DNA of 64,000 nt from an uncultured Candidatus Binatia bacterium (GTDB lineage: Bacteria > Desulfobacterota > Binatia > UBA9968 > JAJDTQ01). The notes below the pieces were generated by a model that was not told where the DNA came from, did no database searches, and was given only the letters and a program-made list of their open reading frames with translations. Both the position numbers and the translations under genes were made by a program. The stretch covers positions 864,001 to 928,000 of the forward strand of contig OZ219754.1 in NCBI GenBank assembly GCA_964291295.2. The letters are read 5' to 3'. Positions within the stretch are counted from its first letter, which is position 1. Every line of letters starts with the position of its first letter. Shown here one piece after another: positions 9,055 through 49,891 of the stretch.

Positions 9055-9922
9055 ATGAGTATCGAATGAACCGGCGGTGATGGCATTGATGAACTGCAGG
9101 GCGGTATTGGCGACGATACGCTGGATGGCCCCGGTGGCGACGACACGCTGTATGGCGGTTCGGGCAACGACAGTCTGTTCGGCGGCCAAGGCGACGACAC
9201 GCTGAGGGGCGGCAGGGGTGGGGACACGCTGTATGGCGGCCTGGGGGCGGACACCTTCGCATTCGCGGTGGGGGACGGCGCCGACAAGATCGTCGCTTTC
9301 GAGGCCGGCGACACGATCGAGATTGCCGGGGTGTCTGGCGGTTTCCCTGCGCTGGTGATCGGCCGATACCTTCGTGTTCCACGAGGGTGATGGGCAGGAC
9401 AAGATCAAGAATTTCGGCTGCGGGTCTGGTAGAAGTGGCGAGCGCCCTTCCACTTACGAAGATTACGTTGCGGCCGAGAAGAAGGCCTTGGCCAATGGGT
9501 GGACGGATATCATCCAGCTTCACCTCAACGCTACGGCCGACGACACCTCGGACCAAGCTGCTTTCGAGTCGCTGAATATCCGTCAGGACGGCGACCATAC
9601 CGTCATCGGCTACGGCGATTCGGGAGATACCATCACACTGTTCGATACCAAGATGGACTCCCTGAGCATGGACGACTTCAAGTTCGTTTTCATCGCCCAG
9701 GAGCCTGCGCCACAGAAAGTTTTCATGGGACAGAGATCCACCAGAGTCCCACTTGGCGCCCAATTCATGTCCAATTCATGTCCAATAATGGGACAAGGCT
9801 ACACGTTTCTGGCATTTTGGACGAAAATCTGGTCATGCGCTCCCACCGGTCACATCCCGAAGCGTCCTGCGGCGCAGGCTCCCAGGGTCGCTTCTGAAGG
9901 CGGGAGGGAAGTTCGAGAATGA
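9055..9922 (+). pseudogene. Disrupted RTX (hemolysin-type Ca-binding repeat) protein
   Basis: RBS CAGGAGG then ATG 9055. Reads [69 protein letters not shown], with TGA at 9067-9069 and a frameshift near 9360 into [15 protein letters not shown]...DDFKF. True 3' end probably near 9700. Confidence 0.8.
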
Positions 9923-19685: not shown

Positions 19686-20501
19686 TGGATGTTCTCCTTG
19701 CCTTGAAGTTGGTTCTGAGATGTTTGCCCTGAAACCAGCCGTGGAATTTCAGCCCTGGAATATCTCCTGAGGCTCGCTCCGAGACGTCGTCTCAAGGCTC
19801 GTGCCGAGATCAGCCCCGCGCGTTGCCCTGAGGTGTTTGTCCCCGGACTCCCGGCCCCGAACAGATCCTGGCCAACTCCTGGCCCCGCGGCAGCCCGAGT
19901 CCGGATGGCCCAAGGTTTTCCCTTTATCCAGGTTTTACGGCGGCAAGTCAAACGAGACGAGACCTCGTTCCGTTCCAGCCCGGGTTCAACCGGCCGGGGG
20001 GCGCCATCGGACCCCTGCGGCAGGGACTGCCGGCGCCCCCCGGGCAGTTGCCACGATGTGCCGGTCCGTTTCCGGCGTCGGAGCAGCGCAGGATGCCCGA
20101 TTCCCTCGATATCCCGTTATCCCGAATCCTGCGAAACCCCGGGCAGGGCCGCGTCCGGGCTTGCATTCCCGCGCGCCAATGGACACAGTCAAGGCCGGAC
20201 GTCTTCAGGACTCGTCAAGGGGTAGCGGGAAACCGTGGAAGGGACGCGGTCGGGACGGTCCTTGGCCTCCCTGCGGTCGCCGGCGTCACGACCGCCGCCG
20301 CCCGCATGCGCCCGGCGGACCCCCGAACCCGTCACGAACCCGAAGACGGCCGTTGTTTCGAATGGTTTCGAATGCCGTCAAGGCGGAATCCGCGGCTGCG
20401 GACCACTGCGCGCCGACGGGTGGCACCCCGGGATCGTGATGGACGGCCCGCCTCTGATCGACCACGAAGCCCGCGCGCGGATGAGCCGGATCAGGAGACC
20501 G

Positions 20502-21860
20502 ATGCATTTCAAGGCCGTATCGCGCACACTGACGCTGCTGTTCCTGTTCGCCGGGATATCCTCTGGCCCGGCCCAGGAGACGGCAGATCCTTTCGAGTCC
20601 CGCGAGAAGGAGGCGCTCCAGTTCATGAGGGGCCGGCAGTTCGGAGAGGCGCTGCCCATATTCCGCGATCTGGTGCGGCTGCGACCGGACCGCAGGGATC
20701 TGCAATTTCTCAGGGGAATGGCGGCCTTGCAGCATTCGCTGCAAGGGGAGATGGGGCTGGCCGACCGCGAAGCTCTTGTCGATGAAGCCATAGCGACCTT
20801 TCGGGCGATGCTCATTGAACAGCCGGGCCTGGTGCGCGTGCGCCTGGAGTTGGCCCGGGCCTTCTTCTACAAAGGTGAGGACGGCCTGTCGCAGGATCAC
20901 TTCGAGCGTGTGCTGGCGGGCAACCCGCCGGCGCCGGTGGTGGCCAATGTGAGGCGGTTCCTTGCCCTCATTCGCGCACGTCGCCGCTGGAACATGCATC
21001 TGGGCTTCGCGTTGGCGCCGGACACCAATATCGGGGGCGGCTCGGACAAGCGGTACATCTACATCGGGGGGCTGCGGTTCCGCAGGAACGAGGAATCGTT
21101 GACCAAGTCGGGCATCGGTCTGTCGGTCTGGGGTGGCGGAGAATACCAGCATCCGCTGGGTGAGCGCGTGCGGCTCCGCCTCGGCATGGACGCATCGCGG
21201 CGGGAGTATTCGGGGTCGAAATTCGACAGCATGCTGGTGTCCTTGTACTTGGGTCCGAGGACCCTGATGAGCCCGAATACGGAGTTCAGCGTCCTGGGCA
21301 ACTGGCGCCATCGGTGGAGCGCCAAAGACTCCGAATATTTCGACTTGGGCGGGCAACTCGCGGTGGCACACCGGTTGACCCGGCGGGTTGTGGTCAGCGG
21401 ACGGGCATCGCGGCATGAGCGCCGGTACCACACGGACAAGGCACTCGACGGACCTGTGCAGGATTTCTCACTGAGCGCCAGCTGGGTGCTCACGCCCACC
21501 ATGCGCCTCGATGCCACCACCGGATACGGGTATAACCGGCCCGACACACGGAGACACCGAAACAGGAGTATCCTGCTGCAGACGAGGTTGTCCGTAGCCT
21601 TGCCGAAGGGCTTCACCGTGGGGGGAGGCGGGGGCGTTCGCTGGACGGCTTACCAGGGCGACTGGTTCCCGCACACGCCCAGCGGCATTTCCCGCGACGA
21701 CAGGACCTACAACCTGCGAGCGTCGGTGCACAACCGCGCCCTCACCTTCTTCGGGTTCAGCCCGGAGGTGTCGTTGATACACGAGGTGCGCAAGACCAAC
21801 GCACAGCTCTACGACTACAAGAGGACCGGCGGAGAGTTGCGGGTGGTGCGGCAGTTCTAG
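20502..21860 (+). CDS. Surface lipoprotein assembly modulator (Slam/DUF560, type 11 secretion translocon)
   Basis: Signal peptide, TPR region with VRLELARAFF and NVRRFL, then barrel from WNMHLGFALAPDTNI to LYDYKR...VRQF with terminal Phe; RBS CAGGAG before ATG 20502. Confidence 0.82.
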   Translation: MHFKAVSRTLTLLFLFAGISSGPAQETADPFESREKEALQFMRGRQFGEALPIFRDLVRLRPDRRDLQFLRGMAALQHSLQGEMGLADREALVDEAIATFRAMLIEQPGLVRVRLELARAFFYKGEDGLSQDHFERVLAGNPPAPVVANVRRFLALIRARRRWNMHLGFALAPDTNIGGGSDKRYIYIGGLRFRRNEESLTKSGIGLSVWGGGEYQHPLGERVRLRLGMDASRREYSGSKFDSMLVSLYLGPRTLMSPNTEFSVLGNWRHRWSAKDSEYFDLGGQLAVAHRLTRRVVVSGRASRHERRYHTDKALDGPVQDFSLSASWVLTPTMRLDATTGYGYNRPDTRRHRNRSILLQTRLSVALPKGFTVGGGGGVRWTAYQGDWFPHTPSGISRDDRTYNLRASVHNRALTFFGFSPEVSLIHEVRKTNAQLYDYKRTGGELRVVRQF

Positions 21861-22031
21861 CGGTGTGTCTCATGAATGGCCTTGCAGTCCGCGATTTCGC
21901 GCAGGATGGTTTTGCGCAGGATGGAGTGGACGGATGTGTTCCGGACGAAAGGCTTGGGATTGGCATTGTGGCAAGCCAAGTAGTGCTTGATGGCGGCAAT
22001 CCGTTCCGGGACGCTGCGAAAGACGCCGGGG
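21857..22031 (-). pseudogene. IS630-family transposase C-terminal fragment (short arm)
   Basis: GVFRSVPERIAAIKHYLACHNANPKPFV...ILR..ADCKAIHETHR*. Confidence 0.8.
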
Positions 22032-22041
22032 AACCCGCCCG

Positions 22042-23007
22042 GTGAGCCTTCCGACGACGCCCCACGATGCGCTGTTCCGGGCACTGGTCTCCGAGCCGGC
22101 CCGCGCTGCTGCGCTGCTCGCACAATACCTGCCGCAAGAAGTCGCCGCTCTCCTCGACCCCGAGGCCCCGCCCGAGGCGGTGGAGGGCCACTTCGTGGAC
22201 GAGGACGCCGCGCGGACCCAGTGCGATGCGCTGTTCCGGGTGAGACTGAGGAGCGGCCACGATGCGCGGCTCTATGTGCTGCTCGAACACAAGAGCCGCG
22301 TCGACGCGGACACGCCGCTCCAACTCCTGAAATACATGGTCAACATCTGGCGCCGCGAGGTCGAGAATGGCGCTGGCGGGGACCGGCTGCCGGCGATCAT
22401 TCCGCTGGTTTTCTACCACGGTCGGGGCCGCTGGACCGCGGCGCGCTCGGTGCCGGGGATGATCGACGCGCCCGGGGAGTTGGAGCCTTTCGTCAGGGAG
22501 TTCGCCTATGTGCTGCATGACCTTGGCGAGATTGCGCCAGGGCGGTTGTCGGTCTCGCCCGAAGTGCGGGCCGGGCTTCTGGCGCTCAAGGTGGTATATG
22601 CCGAGGACATACCGACGGATCTTCTGGACCAGATGACGGGCGGGCCGGTTGCAGGGAGCGCGTTCGAGCGTCATATTGTGCGTTACATGGCCGAGTGCAT
22701 GAACCTGACGCCGCCCTTGCTGGAGGCGTCGCTGCGCCGGACAAAGCCGGACCGTTGGGAGGCGCTGATGGGAACAGTCGCGCAAGCCTGGATCGAACAG
22801 GGAATCGAACAGGGAATCGAACGAGGCCGGATACAGGCCTTGGCGGAGCTTCTTCTTCGTCAACTGGCGTTGCGTTTCGGTGATGTGCCGGATGCGGTGG
22901 GCGAGCGGGTTCGCCGTGCGTCGGCCTCCGAACTGGAGGCTTGGGCGGAGGCCGTGCTGGTGGCGGCGAGCCTCGACGAGGTGCTGGCCGCCACGCCCGG
23001 GCGCTGA
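22042..23007 (+). CDS. Rpn (YhgA-like/Transposase_31) PD-(D/E)xK recombination-promoting nuclease
   Basis: PHDALFR, FVDED...CDALF, YVLLEHKS, LQLLKYM, LPAIIPLVFYHG..W, EQGIEQG repeats, RQLALRFG C-terminal domain. Confidence 0.92.
   Translation: MSLPTTPHDALFRALVSEPARAAALLAQYLPQEVAALLDPEAPPEAVEGHFVDEDAARTQCDALFRVRLRSGHDARLYVLLEHKSRVDADTPLQLLKYMVNIWRREVENGAGGDRLPAIIPLVFYHGRGRWTAARSVPGMIDAPGELEPFVREFAYVLHDLGEIAPGRLSVSPEVRAGLLALKVVYAEDIPTDLLDQMTGGPVAGSAFERHIVRYMAECMNLTPPLLEASLRRTKPDRWEALMGTVAQAWIEQGIEQGIERGRIQALAELLLRQLALRFGDVPDAVGERVRRASASELEAWAEAVLVAASLDEVLAATPGR
22768..23007 (+). CDS. Putative intragenic small Rpn (RpnS-type antitoxin), 79 aa
   Basis: GGGAGG then CGCTG then in-frame ATG (MGTVAQAWIEQG...) inside the Rpn gene. 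Confidence 0.6.
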   Translation: MGTVAQAWIEQGIEQGIERGRIQALAELLLRQLALRFGDVPDAVGERVRRASASELEAWAEAVLVAASLDEVLAATPGR

Positions 23008-23039
23008 GACCGTAGCCGCCAGCGGGCCGGCCGCGGCAC

Positions 23040-23469
23040 GGTCGGGGGCGGTCGTACCTGGACGAAGCGCCTTCATCGGTCCGCATCGGCATCAGGAGTT
23101 CCTGAAGTTCCTGCGGCGCCTCCACCGTGCCTTCCCGCGCGACCCGACCCGGCACATCATCCTGGACAATCATGGAACTCACCGGCATGAAGCGCTGCGC
23201 CGGTGGCTGGCTGCTCACCCGCGATTCCGACTCCATTTCACGCCCACCCGCACCTCCTGGCTCAATCTCGTCGAAAGTGGGTTCGCAAAGCTGACTCCCC
23301 AACGTCTGCGCCGCGGTGTCTTTCGCAGCGTCCCGGAACGGATTGTGGCCATCAAGCACTCCTTGGCTGGCCACAATGCCAATCCCAGGCCTTTCGTCCG
23401 GACCACATCCGTCAATCCATCCTGCGCAAAATCGCAGACTGTAGGGCCATTCATGAGACATACCATTAG
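23040..23469 (+). pseudogene. IS630-family transposase C-terminal fragment (long arm)
   Basis: HRHQEFLKFLR...HIILDNHGTH...HPRFRLHFTPTRTSWLNLVE..F...LRRGVFRSV; frameshifted near the end. Confidence 0.85.
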
Positions 23470-23954
23470 CGGCGGGCCGCTCCCGACCCGTGGCTCCGGT
23501 GTTCGCGGACGTTATCGTCCCAGGGGTCGTAGCTGCCGAAGCACCAGAGATTGCCTTCCGGATCGCGGCAGCAGTAAAGCCGACCCCCGTATTCCTGGTC
23601 CTCCGGCGCCATGACCACCTCGGCGCCCGCCGCCGCGGCTCTGGCATGGTGCGCGTCCACGTCGGAGACGATGAGATAGACCGTCTGCGACACCGGATCG
23701 TCGGACTTGGCCAGGGGCCGGTGAACTGTCCCGTAGTCATCCTCCCGGGCGGAGCCGAGCATCACCATGCCGTTGCCGAACACGAGCTGGGCGTGTAGGA
23801 TGAGGCCGCCCTCGCCGGGCACCACCCGATGCCGCTCGAAGCCGAACGCCTCGCAGAGCCATTCGATGGCCTTGGGCGCGTCATGGTAGCGAAGCGCCGG
23901 AATGATCGTCGCCCGCGTGTCCTTCGGCAGACTGCGCATCGACAGACTGCGCAT
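23466..23954 (-). CDS. VOC/glyoxalase family protein (PhnB-like)
   Basis: IIPALRYHDA..AIEWLCEAFGF, HAQLVFGNGMVML, DVDAHHARA, YGGRLY..RDPEGNLW. Confidence 0.9.
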   Translation of the reverse strand: MRSLSMRSLPKDTRATIIPALRYHDAPKAIEWLCEAFGFERHRVVPGEGGLILHAQLVFGNGMVMLGSAREDDYGTVHRPLAKSDDPVSQTVYLIVSDVDAHHARAAAAGAEVVMAPEDQEYGGRLYCCRDPEGNLWCFGSYDPWDDNVREHRSHGSGAARR

Positions 23955-32734: not shown

Positions 32735-35700
32735 ATGGCCGTAACTGCGACAAATACGCGACAAATACAAGCGCGAAGACGACGGGCGATCTTGCCGCGG
32801 CTGTTCTGGCGGGGCGCGAGCGCCTCGCGCGCGAACCCCGTACCCCCCCCCCCCCCCCCGAAAACCGGCTGCGGGGCTGAGCCGGTGAACGCCCTCCGGA
32901 GAGCCGGACATGGGCTGAAGGCCGCGTTCACCGCCGGCCTGCTGTTGGCGTTGGCCGCTGTCCTCGCGCCCCAGGACGCAGGGGCGCAAGACTTCACGAT
33001 CACCGTGGGACCGGGCTCCAAACAGGTCACCCTGAACTACCGAACAAGCCGGCCTCCAAGCTCGATCCGGGAATGGGGCTACCAAGTGGGAACCTCCTCG
33101 AGAAATTACCAAAGCAACGTAGCCATTCCCGACTCCGGAGGAAAAAGCTCGGGGTCGCATGTCGTGTCCGGCCTGACCTCGGGGGAAACCTACTACTTCC
33201 GCATACGGACGACCTCTACGGACGGCGCCAACACCTTTGGCAACGAGGTCTCCGTGACGCTGCCGACTGTCACCCTCACGGTGAACGGAAACGATGGATG
33301 GTTCGGTTTCGAGTGGGTGTACGACGGCCCGACTGACGGCGCGGTGAGCTGGCAGCTCGAGTGGATCCGGCTCTCGGACCGAAACGGAGAGGGCCGGTGG
33401 CTTGATTTACCCGGCGGCGTCGCCCTCAGAGCATACAGCTACAGCGCAACCAACGGCGAGACTGGCATCTTCCGGGTTCGGCTGGTGGGTCCGGGCGGGC
33501 GGACCACGATCGCGTCGAGCACCGTCAACAACCAGGGCTGGGTCGAGGCCACGCCGCGGGCGGCGACCCCGACGCTGGTCTCCACTGCGAGCCGGACCTT
33601 GGCAGTGACTCCGGGCGGGACGGTGAATGCGTGCTTCAACCTGCTTTCGGTCACGGCGGGCGACACGACGTATCTGGAGGCGCGCCCCGGCCAGACGGCT
33701 GTCGCCCAGCATGCGGCGCTGTCGCACGGCACCCACGGTGTCCGGATCTCGAGCAATGTCGACGGCGTGCGGACGGAAGTCGGCCAGAACCTGTATCCCT
33801 GCGCCGCGCTGGGCGTCGGCGTCCATACGGTCCGCTGGCACTGGAAGGGCCATGACGGCACGGCGGCGACGGAGGCGTCTACATCCACCACGTTCACCGT
33901 CGTGCAGGTTCCCGACCGGACGAAGGACCTGAGCGCCAACCCGGTTTCCGGCAAACCGGGTGAGATCTTTCTGAGGTGGCGCGATCCGATCGAATCCGGG
34001 ATCACCTGGGAATATCAGTACAAGGAGGGCGCCGGGAGTTACGGTGCGTGGACGGCGGCTTCGCTTCAGTCTACGGGTATCCCGGATACCCTCGGAACCA
34101 CCGTGACGGGCCTGAAGCCCGGCACGACATACACGTTCCAGGTCCGGGCGCGGAATGACGGCGGCGCCGGCGCGGCCTCCGCGGAGGAGAGCGCGACCAC
34201 TGTCGCGCCTTTGGTGCCGGCTGCGCCGACGGGGTTTGCGGCATCTCCGGGGAGCACGAAGGTGTGGCTGACCTGGACCGACCCGGAGGACGCCAGCATC
34301 ACCGGCTGGGAGTATCAGCAGAAGGCGGGGGGCGGGAGTTACGGTTCGTGGACAGCGGTTACGGGTTCGACGGCGACGACGACACACGTCGAAGTGACGG
34401 GTCTGACCAACGACACGGCCTATGCGTTCAAGCTTCGGGCGGTGAGCGATGCCGGCAACGGTACGGCGTCGGCTGAACAGACGGCCACGCCGGGGGCTCA
34501 GGTTGCGGCGGTGCTGACGGGCACGGCGGGCGCCGACGGCGCGCATGATCTCACTTGGACGACGACCTCCGGCGGCCCGCACAGGATCGTCAACAACGCC
34601 AATCACATCGGCCTCTGGTACGCGTATTACCGGGCCAGGGGTAGAACAACATGGGGCGGGCCGAGCTACACGGGCGGCGCCGGCACCCGGAAATGGTCAA
34701 CTTCGGGGTCGCCGCACGGCGCGGTTTTTGAGTATCTCGTCCAGCCGGCCGGGTCTCGCATCATCGCCGGCCTCGGCTCCTTCAACTGGAAAGGCCCGGA
34801 GTCCAATGTGATCGAGCTGACGGTCAACAAGCCGGATTCGCCGGCGCTGACGTTCGCGGATGCGCCGGTGACGGTTTCGCCGGGACAGACGGCGACCTAC
34901 ACGGTGAAGCTGAACCAGGCGTTTGCGGGGACGCTTGCGCTGTCGAGTTCGGCGGCGGGCAAGGCGAGGGTGAGTCCGTCGAGCCTGACGTTCACGACGA
35001 GCAACTACAACGTGGCGCGGGCGGTGACGGTGACCGGGGTGGCGGCGGGGACGGCGACGCTCAACCATGCGTTCACGCTGACGGGGGCCTCGAAGACGTT
35101 CATCCCGGATGCGGGGACGGTGTCGGTAACGGTGGGCTCGGGCGGGGGCCAGGTTCCGGCGAAGCCGACGGTGTTTGCAGCGGCGGCGGGCAACGGGCAG
35201 GCGGTGCTGACGTGGGCCAACCCGAACAACGCGAGCATCACGGGCTACAAGCTGCGCTACGCCAAGACGGGCGACAGGAGCAGCGCGACGTGGACCGCCA
35301 TCCCGGGTTCGGGCGCGACCACCGCGACCCACACGGTGATGGGGCTGGACAACGATGCCGAATACAGCTTCCGGCTGCGCGCGGTGAACGGCGCGGGCGA
35401 CGGTGCCGCCACCGACTGGGTGACGGCGACACCCTCGTCGGCGCCGGCGGCGCTGGCGAAGCCGGTGAAGCCGGTTCTGACGGCGGCGGCGGGCGACGGC
35501 TCGGTCACCCTGAGCTGGAGCGCCCAGACGGATATCGCGAGTTGGGTCTACCAGTACAAGAGCGGGGCCGGCAGCTGGAGCGCGACCCGGACGGTTTCGG
35601 ACGGGAGTGCCACGAGTACGGAGGTGACGGGGCTGACGAACGGGACGGCCTACACGTTCCGGCTGTTCGCCCGGCGCGGCAGCGGCGCCTCGGCCGTTCA

Positions 35701-38700
35701 GTCGGTGTGGTCGGACGAGGTGACGGCGACGCCGGTGGGGGTGGTGGTTTCGAAGTCGGCGCTGACGGTGGCGGAAGGAGCGAGCGGGGCCTACACGGTG
35801 AAGTTGAGCACGGCGCCGTCGTCGGATGTGACGGTGACGGTGGGCGGCGCGTCGGGCGACGTGACGGTGAGTCCGCCGAGCCTGACGTTCACCAGCACCA
35901 GCTACAACACGGCGCAGACGGTGACGGTGAGCGCGGCGCAGGACCCCGACGGGGACACGGACCCGGCGGTGACGCTGTCGCACAGCGCGTCGGGCGGGGG
36001 CTACGGCTCGGTTGCGGTCGACAATGTGGTGGTGACGGTAACGGAGGACGACACGAAGGGGGTGACGGTGTCGTCCGGCGCGCTGACGGTGGTGGAAGGG
36101 GGGACCGGGAGCTACACGGTGAAGCTGGACACGCAGCCGTCGGGAGAGGTGGTGGTGACGGTGGAGGGCGCGTCGGGGGATGTGACGGTGCCGGATTCGC
36201 AGTTGCGGTTTGCTGTGAACAACTGGAGCGAGGCGCAGACGGTGACGGTGAACGCCGCCCTGGATACGGACGCGGACACGGACCCCGACGTGACGTTGAC
36301 CCACGGCGTGTCGGGCGGCGGCTACGGCTCGGTGAGCATCGCAGACGTGGTGGTGAGCGTGACCGAGGCGGTTTCGCTGCCGGCCGCGCCGACGGGCCTC
36401 ACCGCCACGGGGGGCAACGGGCAGGTGGTGCTGACGTGGAGCAACCCGAGCGATGCGAGCATCACCGGCTACGAGCTGAGCCACGGCAAGACGGGCGTCA
36501 GGGGGAGCGCGGCCTGGACCGCGATTTCGAGTGCGGGCGCCACCACGACGACCCACACGGTGACGGGCCTGGACAACGACAGCGAGTACAGCTTCCGGCT
36601 GCGCGCGGTGAACCCTGCGGGCAATGGCGCCGAGACGGGCTGGGTGACGGCGACGCCGCAGACGCCGACGGTGCCCGGCGTGACGGTATCGACCGCTGCG
36701 CTGCGGGTGGCGGAGGGCGGCTCCGGCACGTACACGGTGAGGCTGGACACGGCGCCGTCGAGCGATGTGACGGTGACGGTGGACGGCGCGTCGGGGGACG
36801 TGACGGTAACGGGCACGCCGCTGACCTTCACCCCGAGCGACTGGACCGTCCCGCAGACGGTGACGGTGAACGCGGGGACGGACACGGACACGGACACGGA
36901 CCCCGACGTGACGCTGACGCACGGCGCGTCGGGGGGCGGCTACGGTTCGGTGAGCATCGCCTCGGTGGTGGTGAGCGTGGTGGAGAGCGGCGTGGCGCCG
37001 GCGAAGCCGACGGGCCTTGCCGCTGCGGCGGGCGACGGCTCGGTGACGCTGAGCTGGGCCGACCTGACGAACCCTACGGTCACGAAGTGGCAATACCGGC
37101 AGAAGGCCGTCGGCGGGGCTTGGGGCAAGTGGACGGACATGGACGGCTCCGATGCCGGCACGACCCGCCACGAGGTGAGGGGGTTGACCAACGGCACCGC
37201 CTACCAGTTCGAGGTGCGCGCGGTGAACGCGGCCGGCCCGGGGGCGGGCCCGGATGCGCCGGCGAGCGCGACGCCGGTGGCGGCTTCCGGCGGCGGCGGT
37301 GGCCCGACGGCCCCCCCGCCCCCAACTCCCGCGGCGGTCGGGGTGACGGTGACGCCGACCGCGCTGACGGTGGAGGAGGGGAGCAGCGCCACCTACACGG
37401 TGAAGCTGGACACCGAGCCGTCGGCGGATGTGACGGTGAGGGTGAGCGGCGCGTCGGGCGAGGTGACGGTGACGGGGTCTCCGCTCACCTTCACGCCGGG
37501 CGATTACAGCACGGCGCAGACGATCACGGTGAATGCCGGGGCCGACGACGACACGACCGACGACAGGGCGACGTTGACGCATGCGGCTTCCAGCAGTGAC
37601 CCGGACTACGGGGCGTCGCTTGAGATCGATGACGTCGAGGTGACGGTCACCGACACGACGCCGTTGCCGGTGCTGACGCTGGCGCAGGACCCTGCTGCGG
37701 TGGCCGAAGGAGAGGACATCCGTCTCGTGGTGACCGCCGACCGGGCGCTGACGGGCAGTCTGCGAGTGAGCTTGACGCTGGCGGCGCGCGGTGCCGGCGG
37801 CTTCGATGCCGGGGACGTTCCGGGCGGGCTCGGGCCGAGGCTGTTCGATGCGTTGTTCGGCGCCGCGGGGAGCCGGACGGGAGTGGTGACGATTCCGACG
37901 GCGGCGGATACGGATGTGGAAGGCGCGGAGGGCTACCGGGTGACGCTGAACGATGCGGCGGACTACACGGTGGGGAGCGACGCCACGGCCGCGGGTGTGC
38001 TGCGCGACCGGGCGCCGGAGTCTGCGGCGCGGGCGAACCGGGTGAATGCCGCAGTGCTGCCGCAAGTGGCTGCGGCGGCGATGTCGCAGACGCTGGGGGC
38101 GGTGACGGGGCGCATCGAGGCGGCGGCGTCCGGCAAGTCGGGCGGCTCGATGCAGTTCGGCGCCCTGCCGTCGCCGGTGGAGGATGACCGGGCCGTGCTG
38201 CCGCGTTGGGATCGTTCCGGCCCGACCTTGCGCGAGATGCTGGACGGGGCGTCCTTCACGCTGGCGCCCGGCAGTGCCGCCGGCGAGGCGTTCCCGGCTC
38301 CGCTTGCGGTATGGGGCCGGGGCGAGTGGGTATCGGTGTCGGGTTCGGAGAAGGACGTGTCGTGGGACGGCGGGCTGTGGTCGGCGCAGTTGGGGGCGGA
38401 CCTGCGGGTGCGCCCGGACTTGCTGGCCGGGGCGGCGCTGTCCCATGCGTGGGGCGAACTGGACACGGAGACGAGCGGCGGCGGCGGTCGGGTGAAGGGC
38501 GTGCACGAGACGGTGGTCACGTCGTTCAACCCCTATGCGGCGTGGCTGGCACCGGACGGCTCGACCCTGTGGGCAAGCCTCGGCTACGGCCGGGGCGAGG
38601 TGCGGGTCCGGGAGAAGGGTGCGCCGGTGCGCAGCGCCGGCCTGACGCAGTGGAGTGCGTCTGCGGGCGGTCGGGGCGTACTGGCCGAGGATGCGGCGCT

Positions 38701-45963: not shown

Positions 45964-46875
45964 GTGCTGCAGGCGTTCGCGGAGATACTGGCCCCTTCCT
46001 TCCTGCTCTTCCCGGCGGTGCTGGGAAGCGTGGTCCTCGGACTGGTGTGCCCCGCGGTGGGAGGCTTCCTGGTGCTCCGGCGCAGCGTTCTGCTGGGCTT
46101 GGTGCTGCCTCAGTTGGCGGCTGCGGGCGCGGCGTTCGCCCTGTTTGCGCACGCAGTCGGCCTTGTGCCGCATCCGGGCCACTCCACGGGCCACGCCGGC
46201 CACGCGGGCCAGATGGAGGGCATTCTGGCCTACGGCGGTTCGTTGCTGTTCACCTTCGCGGGCATGGCGCTCCTGGGCCTGACGCACCGGGGCGGCGCCG
46301 GGCGCTCGGAGACGCGGCTGGCCGTGGTCTATGCCTTGGCGGGGTCGCTCACGGTTCTCTTCGTGGCGTTCCACCCCTTTGGCGACGCGGCGATCCTGGG
46401 TCTCGTCAAGGGCGAGGCCGTGGTGCTGTCTTGGGCCGAACTCGCCGGCTTGAGCGCGGTCCATGTGGCGGCGGCGGCGTGCCTTGTACTGTTTCGACGT
46501 GAATTGCTGATGGTGTCGTTCGACCGCGACCTCGCCTTCCTCCTCCGGGGAGGCGTCTCCAGGTGGGACCTGCTCTTCCATCTGACCGCCGGGGTCACCA
46601 TTGCACTGGGCGTCATGATGGCCGGTCCTCTGCTCACCTTCGGCCTGCTGATGCTCCCGCCCATCGCCGCGCGGCCCCTGGTGTCGCGGATGGCGCCGTG
46701 GTTCATCGCATCGTCGCTCGCGGGTGCCGGCATCGGTGTCACCGGCTTCGCTGTCGCCTACCGGTTCGACGTGCCGCTGGGTCCTGCGGTGCTGACCCTG
46801 GGCTGTGGGCTGGTGCTGGCGGTTCACGCCCTGGCGCGGCTGTTGGTACGTCTCATGAAGGGCCTAGCATTTTGA
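45964..46875 (+). CDS. Metal ABC transporter permease (ZnuB-like)
   Basis: GGFLVLRR, RELLMVSFDRDLA, GPLLTFGLLMLPP, DVPLGP; last ~12 codons lie inside cassette B. Confidence 0.88.
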   Translation: MLQAFAEILAPSFLLFPAVLGSVVLGLVCPAVGGFLVLRRSVLLGLVLPQLAAAGAAFALFAHAVGLVPHPGHSTGHAGHAGQMEGILAYGGSLLFTFAGMALLGLTHRGGAGRSETRLAVVYALAGSLTVLFVAFHPFGDAAILGLVKGEAVVLSWAELAGLSAVHVAAAACLVLFRRELLMVSFDRDLAFLLRGGVSRWDLLFHLTAGVTIALGVMMAGPLLTFGLLMLPPIAARPLVSRMAPWFIASSLAGAGIGVTGFAVAYRFDVPLGPAVLTLGCGLVLAVHALARLLVRLMKGLAF

Positions 46876-47301
46876 GATTTTGAGGAAGATGGATTGACGG
46901 ATGTGGTCCGGACGAAAGGCCTGGGATTGGCATTGTGGCCAGCCAAGGAGTGCTTGATGGCCACAATCCGTTCCGGGACGCTGCGAAAGACACCGCGGCG
47001 CAGACGTTGGGGAGTCAGCTTTGCGAACCCACTTTCGACGAGATTGAGCCAGGAGGTGCGGGTGGGCGTGAAATGGAGTCGGAATCGCGGGTGAGCAGCC
47101 AGCCACCGGCGCAGCGCTTCATGCCGGTGAGTTCCATGATTGTCCAGGATGATGTGCCGGGTCGGGTCGCGCGGGAAGGCACGGTGGAGGCGCCGCAGGA
47201 ACTTCAGGAACTCCTGATGCCGATACGGACCGATGAAGGCGCTTCGTCCAGGTACGACCGCCCCCGACCGTGCCGCGGCCGGCCCGCTGGCGGCCACGGT
47301 C

Positions 47302-47589
47302 TCAGCGCCCGGGCGTGGCGGCCAGCACCTCGTCGAGGCTCGCCGCCACCAGCACGGCCTCCGCCCAGGCCTCCAGTTCGGAGGCCGACGCACGGCGAAC
47401 CCGCTCGCCCACCGCGTCCGGCACATCACCGAAGCGCAACGCCAGTTGACGAAGAAGAAGTTCCGCCAAGGCCTGTATCCGGCCTCGTTCGATTCCCTTC
47501 TCCATTCCCTCGGCCCTTCCTTCAGCTCTTCCCCGTTCGATTCCCTGTTCGATTCCCTGTTCGATCCAGGCTTGCGCGACTGTGCCCAT
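47302..47589 (-). CDS. Putative intragenic small Rpn (RpnS-type), 95 aa
   Basis: GGGAGG RBS before the in-frame ATG of MGTVAQAW is conserved. Confidence 0.6.
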   Translation of the reverse strand: MGTVAQAWIEQGIEQGIERGRAEGRAEGMEKGIERGRIQALAELLLRQLALRFGDVPDAVGERVRRASASELEAWAEAVLVAASLDEVLAATPGR

Positions 47590-48315
47590 CAGTGCCTCCC
47601 AACGGTCCGGCTTTGTCCGGCGCAGCGACGCCTCCAGCAAGGGCGGCGTCAGGTTCATGCACTCGGCCATGTAACGCACAATATGACGCTCGAACGCGCT
47701 CCCCGCAACCGGCCCGCCCGTCATCTGGTCCAGAAGATCCGTCGGTATGTCCTCGGCATATACCACCTTGAGTGCCAGAAGCCCGGCCCGCACTTCGGGC
47801 GAGACCGACAACCGCCTTGGCGCAATCTCGCCAAGGTCATGCAGCACATAGGCGAACTCCCTGACGAAAGGCTCCAACTCCCCGGGCGCGTCGATCATCC
47901 CCGGCACCGAGGGCGCCGCGGTCCAGCGGCCCCGACCGTGGTAGAAAACCAGCGGAATGATCGCCGGCAGCCGGTCCCCGGCGGCGCCATTCTCGACCTC
48001 GCGGCGCCAGATGTTGACCATGTATTTCAGGAGTTGGAGCGGCGTGTCCGCGTCGACGCGGCTCTTGTGTTCGAGCAGCACATAGAGCCGCGCATCGTGG
48101 CCGCTCCTCAGTCTCACCCGGAACAGCGCATCGCACTGGGTCCGCGCGGCGTCCTCGTCCACGAAGTGGCCCTCCACCGCCTCGGGCGGGGCCTCGGGGT
48201 CGAGAAGAGCGGCGACTTCTTGCGGCAGGTATTGCGCCAGCAGCGCGGCGGCGCGGGCCGGCTCGGAGACCAGTGCCCGGAACAGCGCATCGTGCGGCGT
48301 CGTCGGAAGGCTCAC
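47302..48315 (-). CDS. Rpn (YhgA-like) nuclease, second copy
   Basis: Near-identical to 22042-23007 with a 16-aa longer EGR/EKG repeat block. Confidence 0.92.
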   Translation of the reverse strand: MSLPTTPHDALFRALVSEPARAAALLAQYLPQEVAALLDPEAPPEAVEGHFVDEDAARTQCDALFRVRLRSGHDARLYVLLEHKSRVDADTPLQLLKYMVNIWRREVENGAAGDRLPAIIPLVFYHGRGRWTAAPSVPGMIDAPGELEPFVREFAYVLHDLGEIAPRRLSVSPEVRAGLLALKVVYAEDIPTDLLDQMTGGPVAGSAFERHIVRYMAECMNLTPPLLEASLRRTKPDRWEALMGTVAQAWIEQGIEQGIERGRAEGRAEGMEKGIERGRIQALAELLLRQLALRFGDVPDAVGERVRRASASELEAWAEAVLVAASLDEVLAATPGR

Positions 48316-48481
48316 CGGGCGGGTTCCCCGGCGTCTTTCGCAGCGTCCCGGAACGGATTGCCGCCATCAAGCACTACCTGGCTTGCCACAATGCCAATCC
48401 CAAGCCTTTCGTCCGGAATACATCCGTCCACTCCATCCTGCGCAAGATCGCAGATTGTAAGGCCATTCATGAGACACACCA

Positions 48482-49891
48482 CTAGGGACATGGCTCCGGC
48501 GCTGACGGGCCGCGTCGCCCGGCGTCGCGGAACGCCTCCTCGGTGCAGGCTGTCAGCAGCCGGTCATGGGCGTGGTCCGGGGCGAAGACGCGGAACTTGA
48601 CGATCTTGGAGGGGATGTAGGCGAACAGCTCGGCCATGGACTCCTTGGTGATGACGCCGGTGGCCGGATCGTAGGTGTGAATCTGCTTCTTTCCCATGGC
48701 CATGGGGTTTTCCGGACGGGAATCCTGGCTCGCGATGTCCACGTGGTACACCAGGCTCCGTTGCGCCTCGGGCAGGGCCGCGCGGATCAGGCTCTCCCAC
48801 CGGGGAACCTCGATGGCGTCGAGCCCGCTCTCCAATTCCGCCGCCGAGAGGGTTCGCTCGCAAGCCAGCCGCCACTTGAGGTCGCGGTCGAGGATGCGGC
48901 CCCATTCGCGTCCCAGGGAGATGCCGAGACGGCGCCAGCGGGACACCTCCTGCAGCAGCGACCCGTCGGTCAGATTCAGGTACGACTCCATGTTGTCCAA
49001 GGGGTTGCCCGGTGCGATGCGGGCCATGGTTTCCGGGAACAACTCCTGGAGGTGCACGTCGATGGCTCGGGTGGTGCGGTGGAAGTAGACGTTCTCATAG
49101 AGGTATTTGCGCGCGTTCAGGAACATGGTGAGGGCGCCCTCGCCGGAACGGTGCAGGGTCAGCCCCTTGGGCGAGATGAAGGTGTAGTGGATGAGCCTTT
49201 CGCGGTCGATGGGGCCCACCGAGACCCCGCACATGTAGGAGTCGCGCGACACGTAGTCGAGGTTGTCGAAGGTGAAGATGCCGTTGGTGAGGGGCTGAAG
49301 GAAGCGCAGCCACAGGGGCCTGGCGGGGTCGTCCGCGGAGTCCTTCTTGATGGGAAAGGCGATGTCGTCGGGGTCGAGCGCTTCTCCGTCGGCAAAGCGC
49401 CCCGACGGGCTGCGGCGGATGCGGCGGATGATGTCGCCGAGATGCTCGCGGATGATGACCTGGGAGATGTCTTCGTGGATCAGGCCGTACTGGCTCAGGA
49501 AGTGGTTGTCGAAAAAATGACAGAAGGGGCCGTGGCCGACATCGTGCAGCAGTCCGGTGACCCGCATGTACTCTTCCACGCAGGCGGCGGAAGGGCACGC
49601 GTCGCCCAGTACCCGGCGCAGCGACGGGTAGAGGCTGCGGGCAAAGGCGCCGGCGAGGTGCATGGCCCCCAGACAGTGCTGGAAACGGCTGTGCTCCGCC
49701 GAGGGATAGACCCAGCGGGCGCTCTGAAGCTGGAATATGTAGCGAAGGCGCTGGAACCAGGGGGAATCGATCAGGTTCTTTTCCGTGACCTCGTCCGGAT
49801 CCTCGGGGACGGTGAAAGGGATGTAACGGTGGATCGGGTCGGCGATGAGGGAGCACCCCGAGTACGCCTCACGCGCCCCGTCGGCGGTCAC
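48482..49891 (-). CDS. HD-domain phosphohydrolase (SAMHD1/dNTPase-like)
   Basis: DPIH, FQRLRYI.QL, YPSAEHSRFQH.LG, LLHDVGHGPF.H, D.LDY..RDS; GTG start overlaps the archease stop. Confidence 0.88.
   Translation of the reverse strand: MTADGAREAYSGCSLIADPIHRYIPFTVPEDPDEVTEKNLIDSPWFQRLRYIFQLQSARWVYPSAEHSRFQHCLGAMHLAGAFARSLYPSLRRVLGDACPSAACVEEYMRVTGLLHDVGHGPFCHFFDNHFLSQYGLIHEDISQVIIREHLGDIIRRIRRSPSGRFADGEALDPDDIAFPIKKDSADDPARPLWLRFLQPLTNGIFTFDNLDYVSRDSYMCGVSVGPIDRERLIHYTFISPKGLTLHRSGEGALTMFLNARKYLYENVYFHRTTRAIDVHLQELFPETMARIAPGNPLDNMESYLNLTDGSLLQEVSRWRRLGISLGREWGRILDRDLKWRLACERTLSAAELESGLDAIEVPRWESLIRAALPEAQRSLVYHVDIASQDSRPENPMAMGKKQIHTYDPATGVITKESMAELFAYIPSKIVKFRVFAPDHAHDRLLTACTEEAFRDAGRRGPSAPEPCP

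Follow-up and report, generated by a model that had tools for sequence, protein, structure and literature searches.

A 1.6-kb unit that occurs twice in the 64,000-nt stretch of DNA analysed here (the window) encloses a gene of the Rpn (YhgA-like) family between the ends of two insertion sequences (IS) of the IS630 family. The window lies on C1, a 3.65-Mb contig of a three-contig genome with 66% G+C (G000). Our results make it very probable that this unit is a non-autonomous IS630-family mobile insertion cassette carrying a complete rpnL/rpnS gene. An initial annotation of the window had proposed such an IS630-mobilised carrier of Rpn, and the copies, their exact ends, the TA duplication and the empty sites all support it. 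These footprints are read directly from the sequence; movement by an IS630 transposase acting in trans would account for them. Below, c1-c10 are the copies on C1, of which copies 1 and 2 lie in the window, G-numbers are relatives' genomes and L-numbers are loci.

Copy 1 occupies 21860-23466 on the plus strand (limits corrected from the initial annotation), with TA at 21858-21859 and 23467-23468. Its left arm (21860 to ~22031, minus strand, 172 nt) consists of the 3′ end of an IS630 transposase gene and its terminus (GCGGTGTGTCTCATGAATGGCC...), facing outward. The minus-strand open reading frame (ORF) of this arm reads ...VFRSVPERIAAIKHYLACHNANPKPFVRNTS..., a C-terminal peptide identical in kind to that of the right arm. 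The right arm (~23063-23466, plus strand, 404 nt) is also a transposase gene 3′ end, running from ...IGPHRHQEFLKFL... to the terminus ...GGCCATTCATGAGACATACCAT, and is frameshifted close to its end. Between the arms lie rpnL (22042-23007, plus strand; 321 amino acids, with a GTG start that is ATG in copy 5), a full-length Rpn (YhgA-like) PD-(D/E)XK nuclease gene, and a 55-nt spacer (23008-23062, plus strand). Where the left arm meets the rpn leader (22021-22033, plus strand), AAGAC(G/A)CCG(G/C)GG is found in both the IS630 arm and the native rpn upstream region. The first ~10 nt of the spacer are native rpn downstream sequence, and alignment with an arm-less rpn locus shows homology stopping ~10 nt past the rpn stop. 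Domain matches and inverted-repeat arms thus bear out the earlier description of an intact Rpn gene between two outward-facing IS630 transposase 3′ ends. That description gave the arms as ~170 and ~430 bp; they are indeed unequal, but measure 172 and 404 nt, with the 55-nt spacer apart.

Compared with family models, the right arm covers profile positions 60-140 of the 146 in Pfam DDE_3 (E = 1e-13) and positions 201-298 of the 299 in NCBIfam's IS630 transposase model (E = 6.8e-24); it is 77% identical to the C terminus of 360-residue IS630 transposases. What remains of the transposase in the cassette is its last 57-135 codons; the region of the first catalytic D is absent, and the unit contains no complete DDE_3 (DD34-35E type) transposase. 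Since it carries only C-terminal transposase fragments, the unit is not an autonomous IS. Two inverted IS ends enclosing a passenger gene, with no transposase, are the arrangement of a mobile insertion cassette.

Copy 2 (46843-48482, 1640 nt, minus strand) is inverted relative to copy 1 and has identical internal junctions, as had been noticed for 46840-48485; only the limits needed correction. Its rpnL (47302-48315, minus strand) encodes 337 amino acids with 6 repeat units. The left end is bordered by TA at 48483-48484 (CCC-TA-G...) and the right end by the dinucleotide at 46841-46842, which is CA in element orientation, equal to TA with one transition. A repeat finder reported two inverted-repeat pairs, 21912-22826 / 47531-48445 (915 nt, 98%) and 22799-23474 / 46835-47510 (676 nt, 97%), which together are a single unit interrupted by a 48-nt indel in the repeat tract. 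Pairwise alignment with flanks revealed a further difference between the two copies, a 15-nt indel within the left arm. The repeat finder also detected the arms of copy 1 as mutually inverted (21929-22031 / 23311-23413, 103 nt, 92%), and likewise those of copy 2 (46896-46998 / 48326-48428, 90%). Similarity between copies 1 and 2 starts at the left CTAG and stops a few bases past ...CATGAGAC(A/G)TACCA at the right.

The unit is present ten times on C1 (BLASTN, E = 0 for ten places, far beyond chance). Nine copies of 1607-1722 nt share identical internal junctions, and the tenth is an older, longer-armed form. In the same genome, BLASTN also recovered an arm-less rpn gene (C1:135518-136530, 86% identical, frameshifted), two further rpn fragments and one solitary right end. 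When the ten copies were aligned with 60 nt of flank, the flanks were unrelated in all of them, and homology ended exactly at the termini, its limits not varying from copy to copy: G(T/C)GGTGTGTCTCATGAATGGCC at the left, GGCCATTCATGAGACACACC(A/G)C at the right. Each complete copy carries the 20-nt terminus at its two ends, with 0-4 mismatches; these are terminal inverted repeats of the IS630 type, resembling the CTAG-flanked ends of L104, L105 and L027.

TA stands on both sides of five of the nine complete copies (c1, c4, c5, c6 and c8). The left TA is preceded by C in 9/10 copies, and the right dinucleotide is followed by G in 7/9; the usual target is therefore CTAG. Because the element starts with G and ends with C, CTAG is re-created at each junction. 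IS630 elements duplicate TA, often within CTAG, and this is what we observe, as the initial annotation had anticipated. Its long terminal inverted repeats are present, but the (C/T)TAG in which it had them end is the TA duplication inside a CTAG target. TA duplication with a CTAG target is the signature of IS630/Tc1-mariner DDE transposases. In the mechanism that we propose, an IS630-family DDE transposase from elsewhere would recognise the two outward-facing right termini, and integrate the unit at TA dinucleotides, mostly those of CTAG sites, with duplication of the TA; the chromosome would have received at least nine insertions in this way.

At copy 1, the left TA (21858-21859) is part of a CTAG completed by the C before it and by the G that opens the element, and it also preserves the TAG stop of the upstream Slam-like gene, such that both converging neighbour genes retain a stop codon. 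This upstream gene (20235-21860) directly adjoins copy 1 and matches Pfam SlipAM (surface lipoprotein assembly modifier, E = 8e-25); its TAG stop was the insertion target. Two consecutive genes on one strand, ~10 nt apart from stop to start, flank copy 3 (C1:3211593-3213234), which probably separates them within an operon.

Empty sites were found for copies 1 and 3 and, approximately, for copy 2. We compared copy 3, plus 1.5 kb of flank on each side, with 27 other species of the genus. Its flanks abut with a 2-nt overlap in G002, G006, G042 and G007, and in all four of the relatives read the empty site is ...CTCC-TA-GAAG..., an intact CTAG. Thus, the TG on one side of copy 3 is a later change. 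For copy 1, a 2,961-nt contig of sequencing run X3, from a close relative in which the flanks of this copy differ by 3-6%, joins 21860 to 23472, lacking 1611 nt and with two other letters between; the right TA (23467-23468) belongs to this empty site. In species representatives, the flanks of copy 1 were apart or on different contigs, and no clean empty site was obtained there. For copy 2, flanks are contiguous in G015 and G008, giving an approximate empty site with a 1-nt indel. In-silico excision to look for restored reading frames was uninformative, as long open frames are common at 66% G+C. Copies of identical internal structure, target duplication and empty sites indicate that the unit moved as one piece, as a mobile insertion cassette does. 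Across the 23 kb that separate copies 1 and 2, the window and G005 are collinear, in the same order and orientation, and the two copies are therefore separate insertions rather than the ends of a larger transposon. A composite transposon moving these 23 kb was excluded by this collinearity and by each copy having its own site.

Could the copies instead have arisen by segmental duplication, by homologous recombination or as an artefact of assembly? The window's two copies have opposite orientations and are 94-98% alike, and repeats commonly cause misassembly. However, there are ten copies, with unrelated flanks and homology ending at the same base; they differ by 2-15% and in repeat number, and so do not represent collapsed or duplicated reads; and the empty sites lack the element plus TA exactly. 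Moreover, contigs from three sequencing runs cover the junctions: record 1 of run X1 and record 10 of run X2 reach across 21860, while record 8 of X1 and record 15 of X2 cross 23466, although X1 and X2 may be the genome's own source sample. We regard duplication or artefact as exceedingly improbable.

To understand how the unit was built, we compared its arms with autonomous IS630 relatives in other genomes. These have CTAG-flanked terminal repeats of only ~35 nt (about 20-37 nt), with ends of the form CTAG-TGTAGTGTCTCA... in L104, L105 and L027 (L104 reads CTAG-TGTAGTGTCTCACAAATAACTTTACA...), and the stop codon of their transposase is formed by the target TAG. The repeats of relatives being this short, the left arm, with its 172 nt of repeated coding sequence, must count as a second right end. 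In copy 10 (C1:740890-742714), the left arm includes ~440 nt of the transposase gene (it reads TLFAALDVLTGKVIG...) and extends deeper into that gene than the right arm; after it come ~130 nt of native rpn leader common to two arm-less rpn loci. The right arm of this copy is cut off by unrelated DNA and its right terminus is lost. The short repeats of relatives and the ~440 nt of transposase-coding sequence in copy 10 confirm the earlier suggestion that both arms are IS630 right ends. They also exclude a parent IS630 with natural 170-nt inverted repeats.

The nine standard copies have their left arm fused to the last ~20 nt of the native rpn leader. When copies 1 and 10 are aligned with the arm-less loci and the right arm, the AAGAC(G/A)CCG(G/C)GG joint falls in a stretch that both partners possess, which points to a microhomology-mediated deletion of ~420 nt between short matches. 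Both joints are common to all nine copies, which therefore trace back to a single derivative that afterwards spread in one piece. The copies suggest the following origin. An rpn gene with its own leader would have been flanked by two inverted IS630 elements with their right ends outward. The left ends and the greater part of each transposase gene would then have been lost through internal deletions; 3′ stretches of ~440 nt and ~400 nt would have stayed, as copy 10 still shows. The further ~420-nt deletion would have put the left arm almost directly at the rpn start codon, yielding the 1.6-kb unit. A full-length parental IS630 would be expected to end in GTGGTGTGTCTCATGAATGGCC. The solitary cassette-type right end (C1:2796847-2797041, ~190 nt with terminus) lies 3 kb from copy 5 and may be a remnant of another cassette or of the lost parent.

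We next describe the cargo. The rpnL product matches Pfam Transposase_31 (E = 4.7e-43, 147.6 bits against a cut-off of 21) and, over residues 260-313, DUF4351 (E = 6.2e-8). The NCBIfam RpnA and Rpn family models match it below their cut-offs (53 bits for the RpnA equivalog, cut-off 583), and a search of solved structures by sequence gave 0 matches. The translation contains D9, D62 and E82-H-K84, the residues of PD-(D/E)XK nucleases. In RpnA, mutation of D11, D63 or E82 abolishes activity and position 84 is also catalytic (PMC5350276; this paper and PMC10400941 are cited here and below for the parts consulted). The correspondence to RpnA was drawn from the NCBIfam range, in which residues 5-127 align with model positions 7-125.

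The rpn ORF is intact in nine of the ten copies, c4 being frameshifted. Within it, a Shine-Dalgarno-like GGGAGG and an internal ATG 5 nt downstream (22757-22770, plus strand; ATG at 22768) form a candidate start for RpnS. The predicted gene-within-gene rpnS (22768-23007, plus strand) would encode the C-terminal domain, 79 amino acids here and 79-115 in other copies. The ATG and its GGGAGG are kept in all nine intact copies, 11 codons before the repeats, and this predicted start fits the 8-20 residues before the repeats at which RpnS is reported to begin (PMC10400941). The dodecamer repeats themselves encode four residues per unit, and copy 1 has two units (GIEQ-GIER; 22801-22824, plus strand), while other copies have 4-11. 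Across the intact copies the counts are 2, 6, 4, 7, 9, 8, 11, 11 and 9, built from the types GIEQ, GIEK, GRAE and GMEK, and all nine arrays differ in composition. In E. coli, RpnS is reported to block only RpnL with an equal repeat number, and one Rpn protects against phage (PMC10400941). By analogy with the family, the cargo is predicted to be a complete rpnL/rpnS toxin-antitoxin (phage-defence) gene, and copies with differing repeat numbers would act as separate, non-redundant toxin-antitoxin modules. With a different array in each, the nine intact copies lend themselves to asking whether toxin-antitoxin pairs become independent of one another through their repeat numbers.

Purifying selection has been maintained on every resident rpn gene. 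Over 36 pairs of copies, mean pairwise identity was 98.2% and 97.4% for the two rpn parts and 91.3% and 90.6% for the arms; left and right arms are 81-92% identical to each other. For the first 250 codons, the same number of pairs gave a non-synonymous divergence (dN) of 0.005 and a synonymous divergence (dS) of 0.049, a ratio of 0.10. Changes private to single copies comprised 11 synonymous (195 sites) and 4 non-synonymous (555 sites). Since private changes are mostly synonymous, selection has acted on the resident copies.

Several observations weigh against the cassette reading, and we gather them in this and the following two paragraphs. First, the partner is missing. This 99%-complete genome has no full-length IS630 transposase of the cassette subgroup, and the only intact IS630-family element in it has unrelated ends. 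A DDE_3 search of all three contigs gave 17 matches, of which 12 fell in cassette arms or the solitary end; the remainder came from another IS630-family element (two copies and a partial) and a 156-residue remnant. Searching the genome by tblastn with a full-length relative gave no match before residue 172. An intact IS630 transposase with the same right end, which the initial annotation had named as something to look for, is thus lacking in this genome, and none with matching ends was found in 27 other species of the genus, where the best transposase is 50% identical. The closest transposases in a database of 5.8 billion proteins, 360-residue proteins, are 77% identical. With a best partner of 50% in the genus and 77% anywhere searched, the partner is hypothetical. 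As no matching transposase is present, we infer mobilisation in trans from the footprints; the copies are probably stranded and may be immobile today. The resident IS630-family element (1125 nt; C1:2583298-2584422 and C1:460362-461494) has TA-flanked ends reading TACACAGCGACTTAAGTAATGCC, and its transposase lies in two overlapping frames of 181 and 175 amino acids, an arrangement that suggests programmed frameshifting. This element (C1:2583298-2584422) was rejected as a helper since its ends are unrelated to the cassette termini.

Second, the copies themselves are not uniform. Target duplication is imperfect in four of nine copies, each with one transition on one side (CA on the right of c2, c3 and c9, TG on the left of c7). 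The rpn dS (0.049) is only about half of the arm divergence, and arm relationships are mosaic: c5 and c9 share 97% in the left arm and 91% in the right, and c6 and c9 98% in the right and 87% in the left. Gene conversion between copies therefore probably also contributes, in which case copy ages are not simply readable. For the cargo, expression, toxicity and defence are predicted properties. A promoter scan found 0 sigma-70-like promoters in the unit, and the native rpn leader has been lost from the standard form. In seven of the nine standard copies the upstream gene is co-oriented, ending at the junction TAG in four of those; one of the others has an opposite upstream gene and one has none. 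These orientations come from a crude coding-frame call by third-position G+C (GC3), and they hint that rpn is probably expressed by read-through from the upstream gene.

Third, we found the cassette in no other organism searched. It was absent from 40 relatives searched by DNA. A scan of ~185,000 species for the 19-nt terminus gave 11 loci among the matches listed, none of which carried the cassette; they match the terminus only. In a metagenome scan for Rpn, none of 19 loci among the matches listed carried IS630 sequence, and the best among those listed were 67-73% identical. No plasmid record had the cassette, with 35 among the matches listed matching the transposase part only. A 400-genome sample of the class was also without it, the best match being 63% identical to P0001.

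With no partner in the assembly, the unit could instead be a still-active composite transposon whose transposase sits on a replicon or strain variant missing from the assembly. The insertion of copy 1 is polymorphic relative to the X3 organism, whose flanks are only 3-6% different; full-length transposases with 77% identity exist in public data; and the genome has two small extra contigs, while plasmids are easily lost. Nevertheless, the DDE_3 search covered all three contigs and gave nothing suitable, and copy 10 has no right terminus. The arms have diverged by ~9% on average and contain frameshifts, indels and internal deletions, which points to an old burst, even though the copy 1 site is polymorphic relative to X3. 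We therefore consider a still-active transposon very unlikely.

Rpn genes are widespread in bacteria, are often annotated 'putative transposase' and can reach dozens of copies per genome. We examined by protein how Rpn genes are distributed around this species. They occur in 17 of 27 species of the genus, at only 27-38% identity, and in 0 of 95 other genomes of the order. G005 has 10 Rpn matches and G020 has 8. Nine G005 units (L089-L097) have ~1.1 kb in common at 89-96% identity and belong to another Rpn type; their ends are ragged and variable, with varying upstream limits, and they have neither terminal repeats nor IS630 sequence. These paralogues carry their own variable dodecamer repeats (GRAE/GEAK type). 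The G005 pattern is what the literature describes for rpn genes, which show neither inverted repeats at their termini nor duplicated target sites, have variable ends and probably hitch-hike (PMC10400941). The initial annotation had offered IS630 carriage as one route by which Rpn paralogues multiply; this holds in the present genome, but it is not general, since the related species multiplied another Rpn type without IS630 ends.

In a different explanation, the Rpn nuclease itself would take part in moving or copying the unit, for example by cutting DNA and promoting RecA-independent recombination, and the IS630 ends would be captured passengers or recombination substrates. Rpn proteins raise RecA-independent recombination in Escherichia coli (PMC5350276). 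The genome lacks a cognate transposase, purifying selection is seen on rpn in every resident copy, private changes included, related species hold 8-10 copies of other Rpn types without IS ends, and the mosaic arm relationships suggest recombination between copies. Against this stand the exact IS630-type ends, the TA duplication and the CTAG target. Rpn units without IS ends are ragged in G005, as the literature reports (PMC10400941); Rpn-linked spread therefore does not give the footprint of the cassette. In addition, cutting by RpnA shows little sequence specificity (PMC5350276). We judge it very unlikely that Rpn drives the movement. In its fullest form, the cassette would dispense with an IS630 transposase: its own Rpn PD-(D/E)XK nuclease, perhaps aided by repair functions of the host, would cut at the IS630-type ends or close to them and so bring about copying of the unit. 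This version is to us slightly harder still to credit. If true, the cassette would be an autonomous mobile element run by a nuclease with a restriction-enzyme fold, and such copying would explain the missing transposase, the selection on every rpn copy and the multiplication of Rpn in many bacteria. A cassette moved by an IS630-type transposase remains our preferred reading.

Apart from the cassette, other repeats were noticed in this genome and in a related species. At L028:575-739 in G042, the related species, a 165-nt element resembling a miniature inverted-repeat transposable element (MITE) consists of back-to-back IS630 ends, with 37-nt arms that are 97% complementary and CTAG on both sides, and directly adjoins a full IS630. 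Window positions 34200-37540 hold a long tract of diverged tandem repeats. Its units measure ~300-320 nt, larger periods span 618-1224 nt, and the repeats are 60-86% alike; the tract has the look of a gene whose product consists of many repeated domains. Comparing the region around C1:555150-555325 with the genome, we found a dispersed ~175-nt repeat, 75-90% alike, at window positions 9697-9884 (C1:873697-873884) and more than 20 other places on C1; one copy (C1:943872-944031) lies ~40 nt from the end of cassette copy 9. A second dispersed repeat of ~130 nt has about a dozen copies in the C1 comparison.

What is the significance of this unit? The suggestion that rpn genes hitch-hike becomes a concrete case that can be tested at the bench: the ends are defined, TA is duplicated, and empty sites, an intermediate and the joint left by a deletion can all be seen. 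It is also a case in which a MITE-like element carries a defence or toxin-antitoxin gene. Its scope is one species, and related species multiplied other Rpn genes without a cassette. At the level of titles and abstract openings, the literature searched gave no account of an rpn gene inside an IS630-ended unit; Fig. S1B (rpn arrays) of the supplementary information of PMC10400941 could hold related cases.

Mobile insertion cassettes consist of two terminal inverted repeats around passenger genes, as in the IS231-derived MIC231 of Bacillus cereus. The term also appears in the literature (for example PMC5444012 and PMC4337579). Like these cassettes, our unit has IS-type ends on both sides, a passenger gene, no transposase and a target duplication of the parental type; it exists in several copies and its movement is presumed to occur in trans. 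Unlike them, it takes its ends from IS630, and these are two right ends retaining 172-440 nt of transposase-coding sequence rather than a left and a right end; its cargo is an rpn toxin-antitoxin/defence gene, and its partner IS is absent from the genome. With IS630/Tc1-mariner IS and MITEs it shares the TA duplication, the CTAG target, related terminal sequence and a stop codon taken from the target TAG. It differs from IS630 IS in lacking a transposase, and from MITEs in its far larger size, 1.6 kb with a gene. Like composite transposons, it probably arose from two inverted IS630 copies around a gene and uses their outer ends. However, neither flanking IS is complete (172-440-nt 3′ fragments), which makes a transposase supply of its own impossible, and the nine standard copies all come from one deleted derivative.

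The cargo resembles E. coli RpnA-E and RpnP2 in its Transposase_31 domain, PD-(D/E)XK residues and DUF4351 C-terminal domain (PMC5350276, PMC10400941), and shares with E. coli Rpn, as sequence features, an internal ATG with a Shine-Dalgarno-like motif (here a candidate start) and variable 4-residue repeats (G-hydrophobic-charged-charged), although its identity to E. coli RpnA is low. In contrast to published rpn genes (PMC10400941, as consulted), it has defined ends and an identified vehicle. The mobile insertion cassette is thus a known kind of element; what is new is the rpn cargo, the build from two right ends and a history that can be read from the copies.

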